IMG/VR virus record: IMGVR_UViG_2711768073_000007
Length of the DNA stretch: 4,665 nucleotides
From: a virus
Taxonomy: Duplodnaviria; Heunggongvirae; Uroviricota; Caudoviricetes
Reading direction: 5' to 3' (one strand)
Shown: piece after piece, positions 1 through 4,665 of the stretch
Layout: the number at the start of each line of letters is the position of its first letter
How positions within the stretch are numbered: position 1 is the stretch's first letter
The notes under the pieces: model-generated
What the model was told of the DNA's origin: nothing
Database searches by the model: none
What the model saw: only the letters and a program-made list of their open reading frames with translations
Program-made: the position numbers and the translations under genes

Positions 1-141
1 CAACGCCACGGGGCCAGCAAAAAAGCCATTACCCGTGCGTTTGATGACGATGTTGAGTTTCAGGAGCGCATGGCAGAACACATCCGGTACATGGTTGAAA
101 CCATTGCTCACCACCAGGTTGATATTGATTCAGAGGTATAA
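1..141 (+). CDS. gam: Gam host-nuclease (RecBCD) inhibitor, C-terminal 46 codons; 5' end lies outside the window
   Basis: In-frame translation from position 1 gives [46 protein letters not shown] followed by TAA at 139-141, which matches the C-terminus of lambda Gam as I recall it. It sits 5 nt upstream of bet, as in lambda. Confidence 0.9.
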
Positions 142-146
142 AACGG

Positions 147-932
147 ATGAGTACAGCACTCGCAACGCTGGCAGGGAAGCTGGCTGAACGTGTCGGCATG
201 GATTCTGTCGACCCACAGGAACTGATCACCACTCTTCGCCAGACGGCATTTAAAGGTGATGCCAGCGATGCGCAGTTCATCGCATTGTTGATCGTCGCCA
301 ACCAGTACGGCCTTAATCCGTGGACGAAAGAAATTTACGCCTTCCCTGATAAGCAGAACGGCATCGTTCCGGTGGTGGGCGTTGATGGCTGGTCCCGCAT
401 CATCAATGAAAACCAGCAGTTTGATGGCATGGACTTTGAGCAGGACAATGAATCCTGTACATGCCGGATTTACCGCAAGGACCGTAATCATCCGATCTGC
501 GTTACCGAATGGATGGATGAATGCCGCCGCGAACCATTCAAAACTCGCGAAGGCAGGGAAATCACGGGGCCGTGGCAGTCGCATCCCAAACGGATGTTAC
601 GGCATAAAGCCATGATTCAGTGTGCCCGTCTGGCCTTCGGATTTGCTGGTATCTATGACAAGGATGAAGCCGAGCGCATTGTCGAAAATACTGCATACAC
701 TGCAGAACGTCAGCCAGAACGCGACATCACTCCGGTTAACGATGAAACCATGCAGGAGATTAACACTCTGCTGATAGCCCTGGATAAAACATGGGATGAC
801 GACTTATTGCCGCTCTGTTCCCAGATATTTCGCCGCGACATTCGCGCATCGTCAGAACTGACACAGGCCGAAGCAGTGAAAGCTCTTGGATTCCTGAAAC
901 AGAAAGCCACTGAGCAGAAGGTGGCAGCATGA
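147..932 (+). CDS. bet: Red-beta single-strand annealing protein (Bet), 261 aa
   Basis: The 261-aa product ([38 protein letters not shown]...) is recognisable as lambda Bet and has the same length. The 5-nt gam-bet gap and the ATGA overlap with exo (929-932) are also as in lambda. Confidence 0.96.
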
Positions 933-1609
933 CACCGGACATTATCCTGCAGCGTACCGGGATCGACGTGAGAGCTGTCGAACAGGGGGATGATGCATGG
1001 CACAAATTACGGCTCGGCGTCATCACCGCTTCAGAAGTTCACAACGTGATAGCAAAGCCCCGATCAGGAAAGAAGTGGCCTGACATGAAAATGTCCTACT
1101 TCCACACCCTGCTGGCTGAGGTTTGCACCGGTGTGGCTCCGGAAGTTAACGCTAAAGCGCTGGCCTGGGGAAAACAGTACGAGAACGACGCCAGAACCCT
1201 GTTTGAGTTCACTTCCGGCGTAAATGTTATTGAATCCCCGATCATCTATCGCGACGAAAGTATGCGCACCGCCTGCTCTCCCGATGGTTTATGCAGTGAC
1301 GGCAATGGCCTTGAGCTGAAATGCCCGTTTACCTCCCGGGATTTCATGAAATTCCGGCTCGGTGGTTTCGAGGCCATAAAGTCGGCTTACATGGCCCAGG
1401 TGCAGTACAGCATGTGGGTGACGCGAAAAGATGCCTGGTACTTTGCCAACTATGACCCGCGTATGAAGCGTGAAGGCCTGCATTATGTCGTGATTGAGCG
1501 GAATGAAAAGTATATAGCGAGTTTTGACGAGATGGTGCCGGAGTTCATCGAAAAAATGGACGAGGCACTGGCTGAAATTGGTTTTGTATTTGGGGAGCAA
1601 TGGCGATGA
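929..1609 (+). CDS. exo: Lambda-type 5'-3' exonuclease (Red-alpha, Exo), 226 aa
   Basis: The 226-aa product ([40 protein letters not shown]...) is recognisable as lambda exonuclease and has the same length. Its start overlaps the bet stop (ATGA). Confidence 0.96.
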
Positions 1610-1788
1610 AACATCCTCACGATAATATCCGCGTAGGCACGATCACTTTCGTCTACTCCGTTACGAAGCGAGGCTGGGTATTTCCCGGCCTTTCTGTTAT
1701 CCGAAATCCCCTGAAAGCACAGCGGCTGGCTGAGGAGATAAATAATAAACGGGGAGCTGTATGCACAAAGCATCTCCCGTTGAGTTAA
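1606..1788 (+). CDS. Small conserved lambdoid protein of unknown function, orf60a-like, 60 aa (alternative start ATG 1600)
   Basis: The ATG at 1606 overlaps the exo TGA stop (ATGA at 1606-1609), giving a 60-aa product [24 protein letters not shown].... The length and 4-nt overlap match the lambda orf60a annotation as I recall it; the six-frame track starts it 6 nt earlier at 1600. Confidence 0.7.
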
Positions 1789-1952
1789 GAACGAGTATCG
1801 AGATGGCACATAGCCTCGCTCAAATTGGAGTCAGGTTTGTGCCAATACCAGTAGAAACAGACGAAGAATTTCATACGTTAGCCGCATCCCTTTCACAAAA
1901 GCTGGAAATGATGGTGGCGAAAGCAGAAGCAGATGAGAGAGACCAGGTATGA
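1761..1952 (+). CDS. Small conserved lambdoid protein of unknown function, orf63-like, 63 aa
   Basis: A 63-aa ORF ([37 protein letters not shown]...) overlaps the previous ORF by 28 nt, the same length and overlap as lambda orf63 relative to orf60a. The product is acidic and predicted soluble. Confidence 0.7.
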   Translation: MHKASPVELRTSIEMAHSLAQIGVRFVPIPVETDEEFHTLAASLSQKLEMMVAKAEADERDQV

Positions 1953-2244
1953 CAACCACGGAATGCATTTTTCTGGCAGCGGGCTTCATATTCTGTGTGC
2001 TTATGCTTGCCGACATGGGACTTGTTCAATGACACCTCAGCAAGAAAACGCCCTTCGCAGCATTGCCCGTCAGGCTAATTCTGAAATCAAAAAAGCCAGA
2101 CAGCAGTTTCCGGATAAAAACGTCGATGACATTTGCCGTAGCGTACTGAAGAAGCACCGCGAAACGGTAACGCTGATGGGATTCACACCGACTCATTTAA
2201 GCCTGGCGATCGGCATGTTAAACGGCGTCTTTAAGGAACGGTGA
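1933..2244 (+). CDS. Hypothetical protein in the lambda orf61 position, 103 aa as drawn; the real product may instead be the 71-aa protein from ATG 2029
   Basis: The ATG at 1933 overlaps orf63 by 20 nt, as lambda orf61 does by the recalled coordinates, but here the frame stays open for 103 codons. An internal ATG at 2029 (MTPQQENALRSIARQ...) is translationally coupled to an upstream small ORF, so the start is uncertain. Confidence 0.5.
   Translation: MRETRYDNHGMHFSGSGLHILCAYACRHGTCSMTPQQENALRSIARQANSEIKKARQQFPDKNVDDICRSVLKKHRETVTLMGFTPTHLSLAIGMLNGVFKER
1949..2032 (+). CDS. Candidate 27-aa hydrophobic micropeptide (MTTTECIFLAAGFIFCVLMLADMGLVQ), alternative frame within the orf61-position ORF
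   Basis: Its ATG overlaps the orf63 stop (ATGA at 1949-1952) and its TGA stop overlaps the ATG at 2029 (ATGA at 2029-2032). The product has one continuous hydrophobic stretch of about 20 residues, consistent with a single transmembrane helix. There is no independent SD, so coupling would be required. Confidence 0.25.
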   Translation: MTTTECIFLAAGFIFCVLMLADMGLVQ

Positions 2245-2264
2245 ACATGAAAAGCAAAATCATC

Positions 2265-2290
2265 AGGGAGCTACAGGCTCCTTTTTTATT
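2265..2290 (+). terminator. Putative rho-independent terminator or attenuator inside the pL-type operon
   Basis: GGAGC (2267-2271), loop TACAG, GCTCC (2277-2281), followed directly by TTTTTTATT (2282-2290). The stem can extend to about 7 bp with A-U and G-U pairs. It lies in the gap between the orf61-position ORF and the TraR-like gene. Confidence 0.4.
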
Positions 2291-2342
2291 GTTCGCATTC
2301 ATCCTCAAGCGTATTAACCAACAATTCAGGGATTAATGGAAG

Positions 2343-2561
2343 ATGGCAGACATCATTGATTCGGCATCAGAAATCGAAGAATTACAGCGCAATACAGCAA
2401 TAAAAATGCGTCGTCTGAACTACCAGACTGTATCCGCAACTCATTGTTGTGAGTGTGGCGATCCGATAGATGAGCGAAGACGCCTGGCTGTTCAGGGTTG
2501 TCGGACTTGTGCAAGTTGCCAGGAGGAGATCGAACTTAAGAACAAACAATGGGGACTGTGA
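2343..2561 (+). CDS. TraR/DksA-family C4 zinc-finger protein, 72 aa (phage-encoded probable RNA polymerase secondary-channel binder)
   Basis: The product contains CCECGDPIDERRRLAVQGCRTCASC, i.e. CxxC-(17)-CxxC with the G-PI-E-RR signature, closely resembling the zinc-finger region of F-plasmid TraR. The size is typical of TraR-like proteins. Confidence 0.8.
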   Translation: MADIIDSASEIEELQRNTAIKMRRLNYQTVSATHCCECGDPIDERRRLAVQGCRTCASCQEEIELKNKQWGL

Positions 2562-2608
2562 TGGCCTCAAAGCAGCAAATTTCAACATCGTCCAACTGAG
2601 GTGTAAAA

Positions 2609-2887
2609 ATGTTCAGAATCATTTTTCCTAACACCTGGTACGTCGACCACCACGGCACTCCCTGCAAAATCCTGCGTTCTACCCACAACAAAGTTCACTA
2701 CATCCGAAAAGGCAGAACATGTATCGCCAGCATGTTCCGCTTTAATCATGACTTTGAACCTGTGAATAAAGCTGATGCAGATCGGATAGCAGAAGAGATC
2801 GAAACGGCAGAACACATTAAGAAGTTACGTGACATGCGTTCAAAAAGCAGAGGTAACCATGGAATCATACAGCCTCACACTCGATGA
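2609..2887 (+). CDS. Hypothetical protein, 92 aa, function unknown
   Basis: Good SD (GAGGTG, 2598-2603) 5 nt before ATG 2609, co-oriented with the operon. The 3' end overlaps the xis start by 29 nt. I recognise no motif; basic N-terminal half, acidic central segment. Confidence 0.55.
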   Translation: MFRIIFPNTWYVDHHGTPCKILRSTHNKVHYIRKGRTCIASMFRFNHDFEPVNKADADRIAEEIETAEHIKKLRDMRSKSRGNHGIIQPHTR

Positions 2888-3230
2888 GGCCTGTCAGTTT
2901 CTTAAGATATCCAGACCAACCGCCACCAACTGGATACGAACAGGCCGCCTACAGGCAACACGTAAAGATCCAACCAAGCCAAAATCTCCTTACCTCACAA
3001 CACGGCAAGCCTGCATTGCGGCGCTTCAGTCTCCGCTGCATACTGTCCAGGTGAGCGCGGGTGATGGCATAACAGAGGAAAGAAAATGTCACTCTTCCGC
3101 AGAAATGAAATATGGTATGCCTCGTATTCGCTCCCGGGCGGGAAACGAATTAAGGAATCTCTTGGCACAAAGGACAAGCGGCAAGCTCAGGAGTTGCACG
3201 ACAAGCGAAAAGCAGAACTCTGGCGAGTAG
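2859..3230 (+). CDS. xis: Excisionase-like DNA-binding protein (Xis / recombination directionality factor candidate), 123 aa from ATG 2859 (track gives GTG 2829)
   Basis: SD AGAGG before ATG 2859. The N-terminal about 55 aa ([32 protein letters not shown]...) look like a phage excisionase/AlpA-type helix-turn-helix, and the gene sits immediately upstream of the integrase. The frame runs 145 nt into int in a different frame, so the true C-terminus is uncertain. Confidence 0.6.
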
Positions 3231-4249
3231 AAAAGCTAGGGGATTTACCTGATGTCACTTTTGAAGAGGCCTGCCTAAGATGGCTTGAGGAAAAAGCTGA
3301 TAAAAAATCTCTCGATTCAGATAAAAGCCGGATTGAGTTCTGGCTTGAACATTTTGAGGGTATAAGGCTTAAAGATATCTCGGAGGCAAAGATTTACTCT
3401 GCTGTAAGCAGAATGCATAACAGAAAGACGAAAGAAATATGGAAACAGAAAGTTCAGGCCGCCATCAGGAAAGGTAAAGAACCGCCTGTTTATGAACCAA
3501 AGCCAGTATCAACTCAGACAAAGGCAAAGCATCTTGCCATGATAAAGGCCATTCTCCGTGCTGCAGAACGCGACTGGAAGTGGCTGGAAAAAGCGCCTGT
3601 CATCAAGATACCAGCGGTCAGAAACAAGCGAGTCAGATGGCTGGAAAAGGAGGAAGCAAAACGCCTTATTGATGAGTGCCCCGAACCACTGAAATCTGTC
3701 GTCAAGTTTGCGCTGGCAACTGGTCTGAGAAAGTCGAACATCATAAATCTGGAATGGCAACAAATCGACATGCAGCGACGAGTTGCCTGGGTGAATCCAG
3801 AAGAGAGCAAATCAAACCGCGCCATTGGTGTGGCGCTGAACGATACCGCCTGTAAAGTGTTGCGTGATCAAATAGGCAAGCATCACAAATGGGTGTTTGT
3901 ACATACCAAGGCGGCTAAGCGAGCAGATGGAACATCAACGCCTGCGGTCAGGAAGATGCGCATCGACAGCAAGACATCATGGCTATCAGCTTGTCGTCGT
4001 GCAGGAATTGAAGATTTCCGTTTCCATGACCTCAGACACACCTGGGCAAGCTGGCTGATTCAGTCAGGCGTCCCATTATCAGTGCTTCAGGAAATGGGCG
4101 GATGGGAGTCCATAGAAATGGTTCGTAGGTATGCTCACCTTGCGCCTAATCATTTGACAGAGCATGCGAGGAAAATAGACGACATTTTTGGTGATAATGT
4201 CCCAAATATGTCCCACTCTGGAATTATGGAGGATATAAAGAAGGCGTAA
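3086..4249 (+). CDS. int: Tyrosine site-specific integrase, 387 aa, DLP12 IntD-like, argU-targeting type
   Basis: N-terminus [33 protein letters not shown] is typical of the arm-binding domain of P4/DLP12-family integrases. The C-terminus carries the catalytic signature: [14 protein letters not shown], and VRRYAHL with the catalytic Tyr codon at 4130-4132. The stop lies 15 nt from the tRNA 3' end. Confidence 0.95.
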
Positions 4250-4264
4250 CTGATTGAATTGTAA

Positions 4265-4341
4265 TGGCGCGCCCTGCAGGATTCGAACCTGCGGCCCACG
4301 ACTTAGAAGGTCGTTGCTCTATCCAACTGAGCTAAGGGCGC
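4265..4341 (-). tRNA. argU: tRNA-Arg (anticodon UCU), 77 nt with encoded CCA
   Basis: The reverse complement of 4265-4341 folds as a cloverleaf: acceptor GCGCCCT/AGGGCGC, D-arm GCTC-AGTTGGATA-GAGC, anticodon arm ACGAC-CTTCTAA-GTCGT (anticodon TCT), T-arm GCAGG-TTCGAAT-CCTGC, discriminator G and CCA. It matches E. coli argU as I recall it. Confidence 0.95.
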
Positions 4342-4372
4342 GTTGATACCGCAATGCGGTGTAATCGCGTGA

Positions 4373-4400
4373 ATTATACGGTCAACCCTTGCTGAGTCAA
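4373..4400 (-). promoter_or_regulatory. Probable sigma70 promoter of the tRNA-Arg gene
   Basis: On the - strand: -35 TTGACT (4395-4400), 16-bp spacer, -10 TATAAT (4373-4378). The -10 lies 31 nt upstream of the mature tRNA 5' end and is followed by a GC-rich discriminator-like segment (tcacgcg). Confidence 0.6.
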
Positions 4401-4583
4401 TGGCTTTTGATCTGGTTGCTGAACAAGTGAACGACCGCGTCTGATTTTCTGATTTATTTCGCTATAGCGGCAAACAAACGCACACCGCTGCGCGTCTGAA
4501 TCAAGAAAACCCGTATTTTCATGTATCAAAGTACAATTTACCGCCCTAACGGAAAATTGTCCGCTCCTATGAGACTGGTAACT

Positions 4584-4665
4584 ATGAAACTGGATTTGCC
4601 CCTATATTTCCAGACACCTGTTATCACTTACCCCATCACTGGCCCACTGCCGCAGATATTCCCGT
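4584..4665 (+). CDS. Possible 5' end of a host ORF running off the window (MKLDLPLYFQTPVITYPITGPLPQIFP...); in-frame ATGs also at 4521 and 4569
   Basis: An open frame runs from 4521 to the window edge with no stop. No convincing SD and no recognisable motif, so this could be non-coding intergenic sequence. Confidence 0.2.
   Translation, partial: MKLDLPLYFQTPVITYPITGPLPQIFP

Follow-up and report, generated by a model that had tools for sequence, protein, structure and literature searches.

The sequence considered here is a window of 4,665 nucleotides (nt), meaning the whole stretch that was analysed, from the virus record IMGVR_UViG_2711768073_000007, and the subject is the interval from 1933 to 2887, between the exonuclease gene exo and the excisionase gene xis, which an earlier note had described as an accessory cargo slot. 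Judged by gene order and similarity, this interval is the distal half of the exo-xis region found in lambdoid phages, a run of small, tightly packed and co-oriented early genes. Because that region is well studied and one of its genes has a proven function, the interval is an ordinary and already known one rather than an unassigned cargo slot, and its arrangement is common in sequenced Escherichia coli. The proposed order is orf63, a gene for a hydrophobic peptide of 27 amino acids (aa), the 71-aa Orf61, a 29- or 31-aa open reading frame (ORF) spanning the terminator t2, Orf73, a DUF4222 protein, xis and int, and by analogy with lambda these genes would be transcribed from pL under N antitermination. 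Taken as a whole, an explanation in which Orf73 acts as it does in lambda, neighbouring small genes are translationally coupled, Orf61 and the DUF4222 protein are accessory regulators and gene exchange occurs behind orf73 is considered likely to be right. Features lie on the plus strand unless the minus strand is named.

On the plus strand the gene order is bet (147-932), exo (929-1609), the run of small ORFs, the excisionase gene (2859-3230) and the integrase gene (3086-4249). Window bases 1-4590 match chromosomal loci in sequenced E. coli strains at 100% identity, and in these loci the annotation pipeline PGAP labels bet, lambda exonuclease, DUF1317, DUF1382, a 71-aa hypothetical protein, a TraR/DksA family regulator, DUF4222, intD and tRNA-Arg, and the Escherichia phage ev243 is 99.9% identical to window positions 1600-3100. 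On the strength of the gene order, the identical E. coli loci and the ev243 match, the window forms the left arm of a lambda-like prophage that sits at argU, and it is drawn in reverse relative to the usual lambda map. Lambda positions 27500-33000 are collinear with the interval, and orf60a, orf63 and orf73 (the last unannotated in lambda) are nearly identical; Pfam and PHROG matches together with lambda synteny place orf60a, orf63, orf61 and orf73 in that order directly after exo. The same position between exo and xis and the same gene order (orf60a-orf63-orf61-orf73-ea22 and onwards) are found in lambda and in the Shiga toxin (Stx) phages Phi24B and 933W, with orf60a, orf63, the 27-aa ORF, the body of orf61, the t1 and t2 hairpins and orf73 all near-identical to those of the window. 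The window differs from these phages in having a single DUF4222 gene instead of ea22, ea8.5 and orf55, and from lambda in having an xis and int of the HTH_17/IntD (argU) type and an intact orf61. PMC8614690 counts ea22 as the fifth member of the block, but there is no ea22-like ORF between 2562 and xis, the space being filled by the DUF4222 gene.

The earlier note's placement of the interval between exo and xis of a lambdoid phage is therefore upheld by lambda synteny and near-identity. The three ORFs that it named are present on the plus strand at 1933-2244, 2343-2561 and 2609-2887, and they are not chance frames, since each matches a family (PHROG 303/26061, zf-dskA_traR and DUF4222 respectively) and each has a coding pattern of substitution. 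They are co-oriented with the early leftward operon, and the view that they are small non-essential genes agrees with a CRISPR interference table in which the lambda counterparts are non-essential (PMC10695390). The further description of the interval as a variable region holds only in part: phages are indeed mosaic after orf73, but 1930-2345 is constant. All 179 phage records matching window 1930-2345 are 95-99% identical to it, and because of this the block orf60a-orf63-orf61-orf73 is, as far as these matching sequences go, not variable, with variation found only after orf73, from about 2562. The claim that no function and no specific known system could be assigned does not survive, as one product is an ortholog of a characterised protein, the DUF4222 family includes the studied protein RgdR, and Orf61 has been studied genetically (PMC6213356). 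Effects that the exo-xis region has on lysogenisation and induction have also been described (PMC3824215, PMC4195576, PMC6213356).

The product with a published mechanism is that of orf73 (2343-2561), a 72-aa protein of the TraR family with a C4 zinc finger. The earlier suggestion of a TraR-like protein at this position is confirmed by a Pfam zf-dskA_traR (PF01258) match of 37.3 bits against a gathering score of 24.9 (residues 33-64, with CxxC...CxxC present), by PHROG 54, named 'DksA-like zinc-finger protein' (E 3.6e-26), and by the TraR chains 5w1s_M and 6n57_M, which are matched over the full length of the protein. Sixty-two of 71 residues (87%) are identical to lambda Orf73, a protein of 73 aa at the same genomic position; residues 1-26 are identical, the DxxDxA motif is kept (M-A-D3-I-I-D6-S-A8), and so are all the cysteines, the shared C4 zinc finger including the extra cysteines of Orf73. 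The two proteins differ in their C-terminal residues, which are EEIELKNKQWGL in the window and EDLELISKQRGSK in Orf73. Like the TraR subfamily, the window protein is about 73 aa long and lacks the coiled coil of DksA. The score for NCBIfam TIGR02419 (C4_traR_proteo) was 53.9 bits, below the curated cut-off of 59.7, and this near miss does not outweigh 87% identity to Orf73. Purified lambda Orf73 competes with DksA for RNA polymerase, binds the secondary channel of the enzyme, inhibits rrnB P1 (IC50 about 50 nM) and rpsT P2 without ppGpp, slows host growth and raises phage yield 3-4 fold after induction, for which D3 and D6 of the DxxDxA motif are needed (PMC9239242). Because the motif and cysteines are kept and the TraR structures match over the full length, the function of lambda Orf73 can be carried over to the window protein with good confidence. 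The window Orf73 would thus be expected to bind the secondary channel of the host RNA polymerase, to inhibit promoters of rRNA and ribosomal proteins without ppGpp, to slow the host and to raise phage yield.

Upstream of orf73 the gene model of the orf61 position requires revision, beginning with an ORF for a hydrophobic peptide of 27 aa (MTTTECIFLAAGFIFCVLMLADMGLVQ, 1949-2032), which overlaps orf63 at its 5' end and the 71-aa gene at its 3' end, in each case by ATGA. Coding potential was assessed with 189 complete copies of the stretch, taken from viral contigs and other loci, by classing distinct nucleotide variants as synonymous or non-synonymous. The 27-aa ORF, which is in a different frame from the long orf61 reading, is intact in 188 of the 189 copies, and 15 of its 24 distinct variants fall at codon position 3; 14 are synonymous and 10 non-synonymous where the expected synonymous fraction is 0.24 (P = 3e-4). 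Synonymous and non-synonymous counts for comparison frames were 23 and 26 in orf60a (P = 7e-4) and 34 and 34 in orf73 (P = 2e-7), whereas alternative reading frames gave no coding-type pattern. The 27-aa ORF has been joined to three unrelated upstream genes, and in each case the TGA stop of the upstream gene overlaps its ATG. In 8 contigs a Dam-like methyltransferase gene takes the place of orf63, homology to the window begins exactly at the 1949 ATG, and the TGA of the methyltransferase gene overlaps that ATG behind a GGGAGG Shine-Dalgarno sequence. These contigs (L020, L083, L074, L055, L009, L030, L069 and L063) encode an N6-adenine methyltransferase with an NPPY motif, the recombination junction lying exactly at the micropeptide ATG. 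The peptide has a grand average of hydropathy of 1.62 and a 17-residue hydropathy maximum of 2.44. No unusual RNA structure was found in this region, which folds no better than shuffled sequences (z +0.43).

The possible micropeptide of the earlier note is thus real on the available evidence, and the 27-aa peptide is, on balance, probably a translated and functional phage membrane micropeptide. The ATGA overlaps joining orf63, the 27-aa ORF and the 71-aa gene suggest that translation may be coupled by termination and reinitiation. The ORF is identical in lambda, is unannotated in the lambda and PGAP records examined, and appears in databases only as 'hypothetical protein'; a full-text literature search for the peptide string found no paper quoting it. 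No called gene resembling it lies upstream of the remote Orf61 homologs that were examined, and the peptide therefore appears to be confined to the lambda-type module of E. coli. In the published delta-orf61 mutants the whole annotated orf61 was replaced by an 87-nt scar (PMC6213356), from which we infer that the 27-aa ORF was deleted as well and that these are double mutants. Since lambda orf61 is a frameshifted remnant and the delta-orf61 deletion removes the peptide, phenotypes ascribed to lambda orf61 may belong to the 27-aa peptide.

The second component at this position is the full-length Orf61, a 71-aa protein with a pI of 10.0 (2029-2244; PHROG 303, E 3.6e-43), the length also called by PGAP. 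It starts at an internal ATG at 2029 within a 103-aa ORF (1933-2244) that matches both PHROG 26061 and PHROG 303, and its frame carries 27 synonymous and 28 non-synonymous variants (P = 9e-6). A HMMER scan of 1.8 billion representatives yielded about 20 remote homologs with 32-65% identity and lengths of 66-89 aa (most 69-75), of which most begin at the aligned methionine. They are encoded between exo or recT and xis or int, with one case in the nin region, and in the closest of them (P0195, 65% identity) a TraR-like gene comes next, as it does in the near-identical E. coli variants P0025 and P0038. The AlphaFold2 (AF2) model of the 71-aa protein (pLDDT 89.8) is a predicted bundle of three helices, at residues 3-26, 32-49 and 54-64, consistent with the three-helix model given for the Stx-phage protein in PMC8614690; the latter (vb_24B_7c), annotated as 93 aa, contains the window's 71-aa product as its residues 23-93, with 97-98% identity across the longer forms. 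In a four-way alignment of the window, lambda, phage 434 and Escherichia sp. E1V33, a run of six A residues at 2090-2095 corresponds to a run of seven in lambda, and it is because of this A7 homopolymer that lambda orf61 is frameshifted. The 61-aa lambda orf61 product agrees with the 103-aa ORF over its first 54 residues and then diverges, the remainder lying in another lambda frame, in keeping with PMC8614690, which remarks of lambda Orf61 that beside its Stx-phage counterpart it 'appears to be truncated'. A regulatory role for the protein is plausible. Profile searches found no sequence relatives of Orf61 with solved structures.

Names and motifs attached to this protein call for some caution. 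Many NCBI records call the 71-aa product 'cell division protein ZapA', for which a sub-threshold Pfam match was the only support found; the score of 16.1 bits falls short of the 23.8 bits of the ZapA threshold, the name was rejected, and it appears to be a propagated over-annotation. The C-terminal motif GFTPTHLSLAIGMLNGVF (window 2185-2235) resembles the ankyrin-repeat consensus (G-TPLHLAA--GH--V), and a relation of this TPxHLxLAxGxLNG motif to ankyrins or DARPins was considered and discarded, the matches being weak, including long repeat proteins, and the resemblance being at motif level only.

Directly behind the stop codon of the 71-aa gene begins an ORF of 31 aa (MNMKSKIIRELQAPFLLFAFILKRINQQFRD, 2241-2336, from a GTG at 2241, or 29 aa from the ATG at 2247), which is conserved in lambda and ends 6 nt before the orf73 ATG. 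It carries 10 synonymous and 12 non-synonymous variants in its own frame only (P = 0.004), a modest and weaker coding signature. Its annotation in phage 434 includes a ribosome-binding site, and we infer that it is the window's equivalent of lambda orf2313, a 31-aa ORF which ribosome profiling detected in the corresponding lambda region (PMC8614690). Inside it lies the intrinsic terminator t2 (2265-2292), with an 8-bp stem GGGAGCU-ACA-GGCUCC(U) and a U-run. The hairpin at 2265-2283 has a folding energy of -10.2 kcal/mol (z -3.27), and none of 200 shuffled sequences was as stable. The terminator has been predicted in lambda and Phi24B, and lambda mRNA levels drop downstream of it (PMC4195576). 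Ribosomes crossing the t2 hairpin while translating the 31-aa ORF could lower termination, which would couple translation to read-through of t2 and to expression of orf73.

The last gene before xis encodes a DUF4222 protein of 92 aa and pI 9.9 (2609-2887; Pfam PF13973, 69.4 bits against a threshold of 27, residues 3-53; PHROG 285), and its last 29 nt overlap the start of xis. A structural model predicts a small beta-barrel (about residues 10-41) of Tudor/SH3-like appearance and, at the C-terminus, a long helix (54-81); no relative with a solved structure emerged from profile searches against PDB sequences. Homologs with 54-100% identity occur widely among Escherichia, Salmonella, Citrobacter and Enterobacter prophages and share a conserved core of about 79 aa, the C-terminal tail varying with the downstream junction. 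In Salmonella, Citrobacter and Enterobacter prophages the gene is placed likewise, 0-2 genes before xis or int, and at most of the loci examined, Citrobacter L317 being an exception, it comes after a TraR-like gene. Loci related to the window by DUF4222 alignment were 100%-identical copies only, and the diversity of contexts comes from single look-ups.

The only DUF4222 protein that has been studied is RgdR (ECs1581), from the CP-933C / Sp7 element of E. coli O157:H7, which resembles a phage-inducible chromosomal island (PICI) (PMC3378721, PMC10877973, PMC6092414). RgdR is a regulator of global effect that activates LEE1, and with it the type III secretion system (T3SS), represses motility and binds DNA non-specifically; phenotypes in LEE1/T3SS and motility have been reported for RgdR and C1493 only (PMC3378721). 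Both RgdR (99 aa; Pfam DUF4222 score 82 bits) and the window protein are small, basic and phage- or satellite-borne, and in each a DUF4222 domain that scores above threshold precedes a basic C-terminal segment. They differ in setting, RgdR lying upstream of a PICI primase gene whereas the window gene is in a lambdoid early-left operon adjoining xis, and many host strains of the window-type gene are without the LEE. If RgdR and the genetic work on Orf61 are taken as guides, the small basic proteins Orf61 and DUF4222 would most likely, although this part is less certain, be accessory regulators that tune the lysis-lysogeny decision and induction by way of DNA or the transcription machinery.

Exchange of genes was examined in 93 viral contigs drawn at random by means of the t2 sequence and unselected for what lies downstream. 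A window-type DUF4222 gene directly follows orf73 in 33 of the 93, and 22 of these 33 have the same xis/IntD. At least seven alternative contents are found downstream of orf73: the single DUF4222 gene of the window; an ea22-like gene with DUF551 and others, a second, diverged DUF4222 gene and a DUF1233 xis; the reverse-strand membrane proteins of phage 434; the ea22 / ea8.5 / orf55 set of lambda; a dATP/dGTP pyrophosphohydrolase gene with DUF551 and ea8.5; a reverse-strand GGDEF diguanylate cyclase gene with the same xis/IntD as the window; and a short ea22. The position behind orf73 is the only real swap-in slot of the region, and the window holds its commonest and minimal occupant, one DUF4222 gene placed end-to-start with xis. 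The diguanylate cyclase gene of contig L009 (4769-6070, minus strand), which stands in the place of the DUF4222 gene, encodes a 433-aa membrane protein (Pfam GGDEF E 7e-39); it is a classic moron and could alter cyclic di-GMP signalling in the lysogen.

The idea that the interval is a cargo slot for genes of host takeover, anti-defence or superinfection exclusion belonging to some unknown system draws on the true mosaicism behind orf73, where other phages carry unrelated genes including the reverse-strand membrane proteins of the phage 434 type and the GGDEF moron, and Orf73 can itself, broadly speaking, be called a host-takeover factor (PMC9239242). However, no PADLOC model matched any of the 7 products at E < 0.001 (a library that does not cover anti-defence genes), a consensus promoter scan found no promoter-like site in the interval (nor did it pick up the p1 predicted in PMC4195576), and 4 of the 5 coding units are part of a block that is 95-99% conserved across the 179 phage records that match, unlike swap-in cargo. 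The genes are co-oriented and overlap or abut their neighbours, for which reason they are read as members of an operon rather than as morons. A defence, anti-defence or exclusion function, for which the earlier note held this to be the most plausible place, consequently finds no support, and the cargo explanation is regarded as very unlikely. It is also quite unlikely that a long Orf61 of 103 (or 93) aa is the real product and that the 27-aa frame is open by chance. Both frames are open, the 93-aa form is annotated in many records and was the one modelled in PMC8614690, and in the Escherichia sp. E1V33 contig (L088) an ATGA-coupled start feeds the long frame. Nevertheless, the long frame has 4 synonymous and 21 non-synonymous among the 25 distinct variants of 1951-2028 (P = 0.84), as against 14 and 10 in the 27-aa frame, most remote homologs lack the N-terminal extension, and in P0025-type E. 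coli prophages the 71-aa gene directly follows a 250-aa gene with nothing that matches the extension; for the 93-aa form, moreover, AF2 and RoseTTAFold did not agree over residues 1-23 (PMC8614690). The 103-aa reading from 1933, whose upstream 80 nt have no coding signature in that frame, was accordingly rejected, and of the two lengths offered by the earlier note it is 71 aa that is backed, by homolog lengths, aligned starts and PGAP.

Two further proposals concern the DUF4222 protein, for which the preferred reading is that of an accessory regulator expressed with the early genes. One would make it a Tudor-like factor binding RNA polymerase, contacting the beta lobe as UvrD/PcrA do through their C-terminal domains and CarD through its RID, and forming with Orf73 a two-part module directed at host transcription; if true, such binding would also explain how RgdR controls T3SS and motility without sequence-specific DNA binding. 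This starts from the predicted barrel, but small beta-barrels are among the commonest folds, identity to the structure matches is only 2-11%, Foldseek returned nothing below E 0.026 and ranked TnsB, PWWP and ribosomal proteins first, and profile searches against PDB sequences were empty, so that the proposal must be considered unlikely. The other would have the protein serve the integration module, assisting or regulating excision and integration, instead of belonging with the host-directed early genes. Its 29-nt coding overlap with xis fits, as does its position immediately or nearly upstream of three unrelated types of xis, namely HTH_17/IntD in the window, DUF1233 in L006 and, in L113, Exc paired with an icd-site integrase. 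Yet L009 has the same xis/IntD with a GGDEF gene in place of DUF4222, RgdR in PICI elements lies upstream of primase and far from int, the xis-proximal regions of lambda and phage 434 that were examined hold no DUF4222 gene, and a place at the end of the operon before xis may be positional only; membership of the integration module is considered distinctly improbable.

A number of observations weigh against parts of the preferred explanation. Both pL and N lie outside the window, and t2 is upstream of orf73 and the DUF4222 gene. Published findings on orf73 conflict, one group reporting that it lowers phage yield on infection (discussed in PMC9239242). For the micropeptide, the certain gene orf63 has 10 synonymous and 32 non-synonymous variants and thus no synonymous excess (P = 0.2), from which it follows that the substitution test is of limited power. 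In Escherichia sp. E1V33 a third upstream gene has the ATGA overlap and a 13-nt deletion then fuses the micropeptide start to the orf61 frame, and the 27-aa peptide is therefore dispensable in at least that case. A DNA-binding role with a homeodomain-like fold has been proposed for Orf61 (PMC8614690); the structure matches of the Orf61 model were heterogeneous helical bundles, and as no homeodomain was among the top 60 the proposal is not corroborated. Finally, the DUF4222 protein of the window and RgdR share only 24% identity (pairwise E 4e-6), and the RGD motif, which occupies RgdR residues 20-22 and has been reported as functionally important, is lacking, MRGDIYRD of RgdR aligning to NTWYVD; it occurs in 0 of 31 lambdoid-type DUF4222 homologs. 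Because of the low identity and the missing motif, the phenotype of RgdR cannot simply be transferred.

The genes that flank the interval complete the picture. The context gene orf60a (DUF1317; 1606-1788; Pfam E 2.1e-39, with the PGAP annotation of the identical E. coli locus) has a start that overlaps the exo stop by ATGA and contains a predicted hairpin at 1670-1692 (-17.6 kcal/mol, z -2.8) corresponding to the t1 predicted in PMC4195576. The next, orf63 (DUF1382; 1761-1952), is near-identical to lambda orf63, matches Pfam DUF1382 (E 3e-31) and the solved chain 8dsb_A (E 2e-33), and has a TGA stop overlapping the ATG of the 27-aa ORF; an NMR structure of Orf63 has been published (PMC10869804). 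PDB entry 8dsb_A carries the label 'Xis (Excision72)', though the protein is of the DUF1382 Orf63 family and no excisionase. Beyond the interval lies the excisionase gene (2859-3230), whose 123-aa product is of the HTH_17 type (PHROG 2907 excisionase, E 5.9e-46, residues 1-116; Pfam HTH_17) and which overlaps the end of the DUF4222 gene and, by 145 nt, the start of int. At an identical E. coli locus PGAP reduces xis to a 66-nt 'incomplete' pseudogene fragment, and intact xis is probably under-called in RefSeq annotation. The integrase gene (3086-4249) encodes a tyrosine recombinase of the IntD type (Pfam Phage_integrase E 5.5e-47; annotated intD in identical genomes) and is followed on the minus strand by the attachment-site tRNA-Arg(TCT) gene, argU (4265-4341; found by ARAGORN, Rfam tRNA 72.1 bits). 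The tRNA was the only structured RNA or small RNA found by Rfam in the window. Most matching E. coli genomes lose identity after 4590 and ETEC4091 alone spans the full window, in two pieces; given this two-piece cover and the stop at 4590, the last 75 bases (4591-4665), which are host flank beyond argU, are taken to be strain-variable.

A scan of genome contigs returned mostly contaminating lambda DNA and was of no use for assessing diversity. Contigs of about 48.4-48.5 kb, or fragments (L089-L102 and L105), labelled as Shewanella, Pseudomonas, Bradyrhizobium, Paenibacillus, Kitasatospora, Oceanobacillus and others, carry the lambda-type allele, their 214-nt match including the A7 frameshift, and look like phage lambda DNA contaminating unrelated genome assemblies.

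Placing the interval within the exo-xis region matters little in itself, as descriptions of this region go back two decades and a mechanism has been published for one gene in the interval. The new material is small and consists of the corrected gene model, the short ORF across t2, and the predicted fold and recurrent position of DUF4222. For those working with lambda and Stx phages, "orf61" becomes a 27-aa membrane peptide plus a 71-aa protein, with the lambda reference allele a frameshifted pseudogene. A short ORF that crosses t2 and stops just short of orf73 suggests translational control of the levels of Orf73 and of downstream products, and translation across t2 might explain differences in the levels of orf73 and ea22 between phages and between inducers. 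The DUF4222 protein, as the commonest occupant of the position before xis and with its putative Tudor/SH3-like barrel, offers a testable lead for regulators of the RgdR type in pathogenic E. coli.

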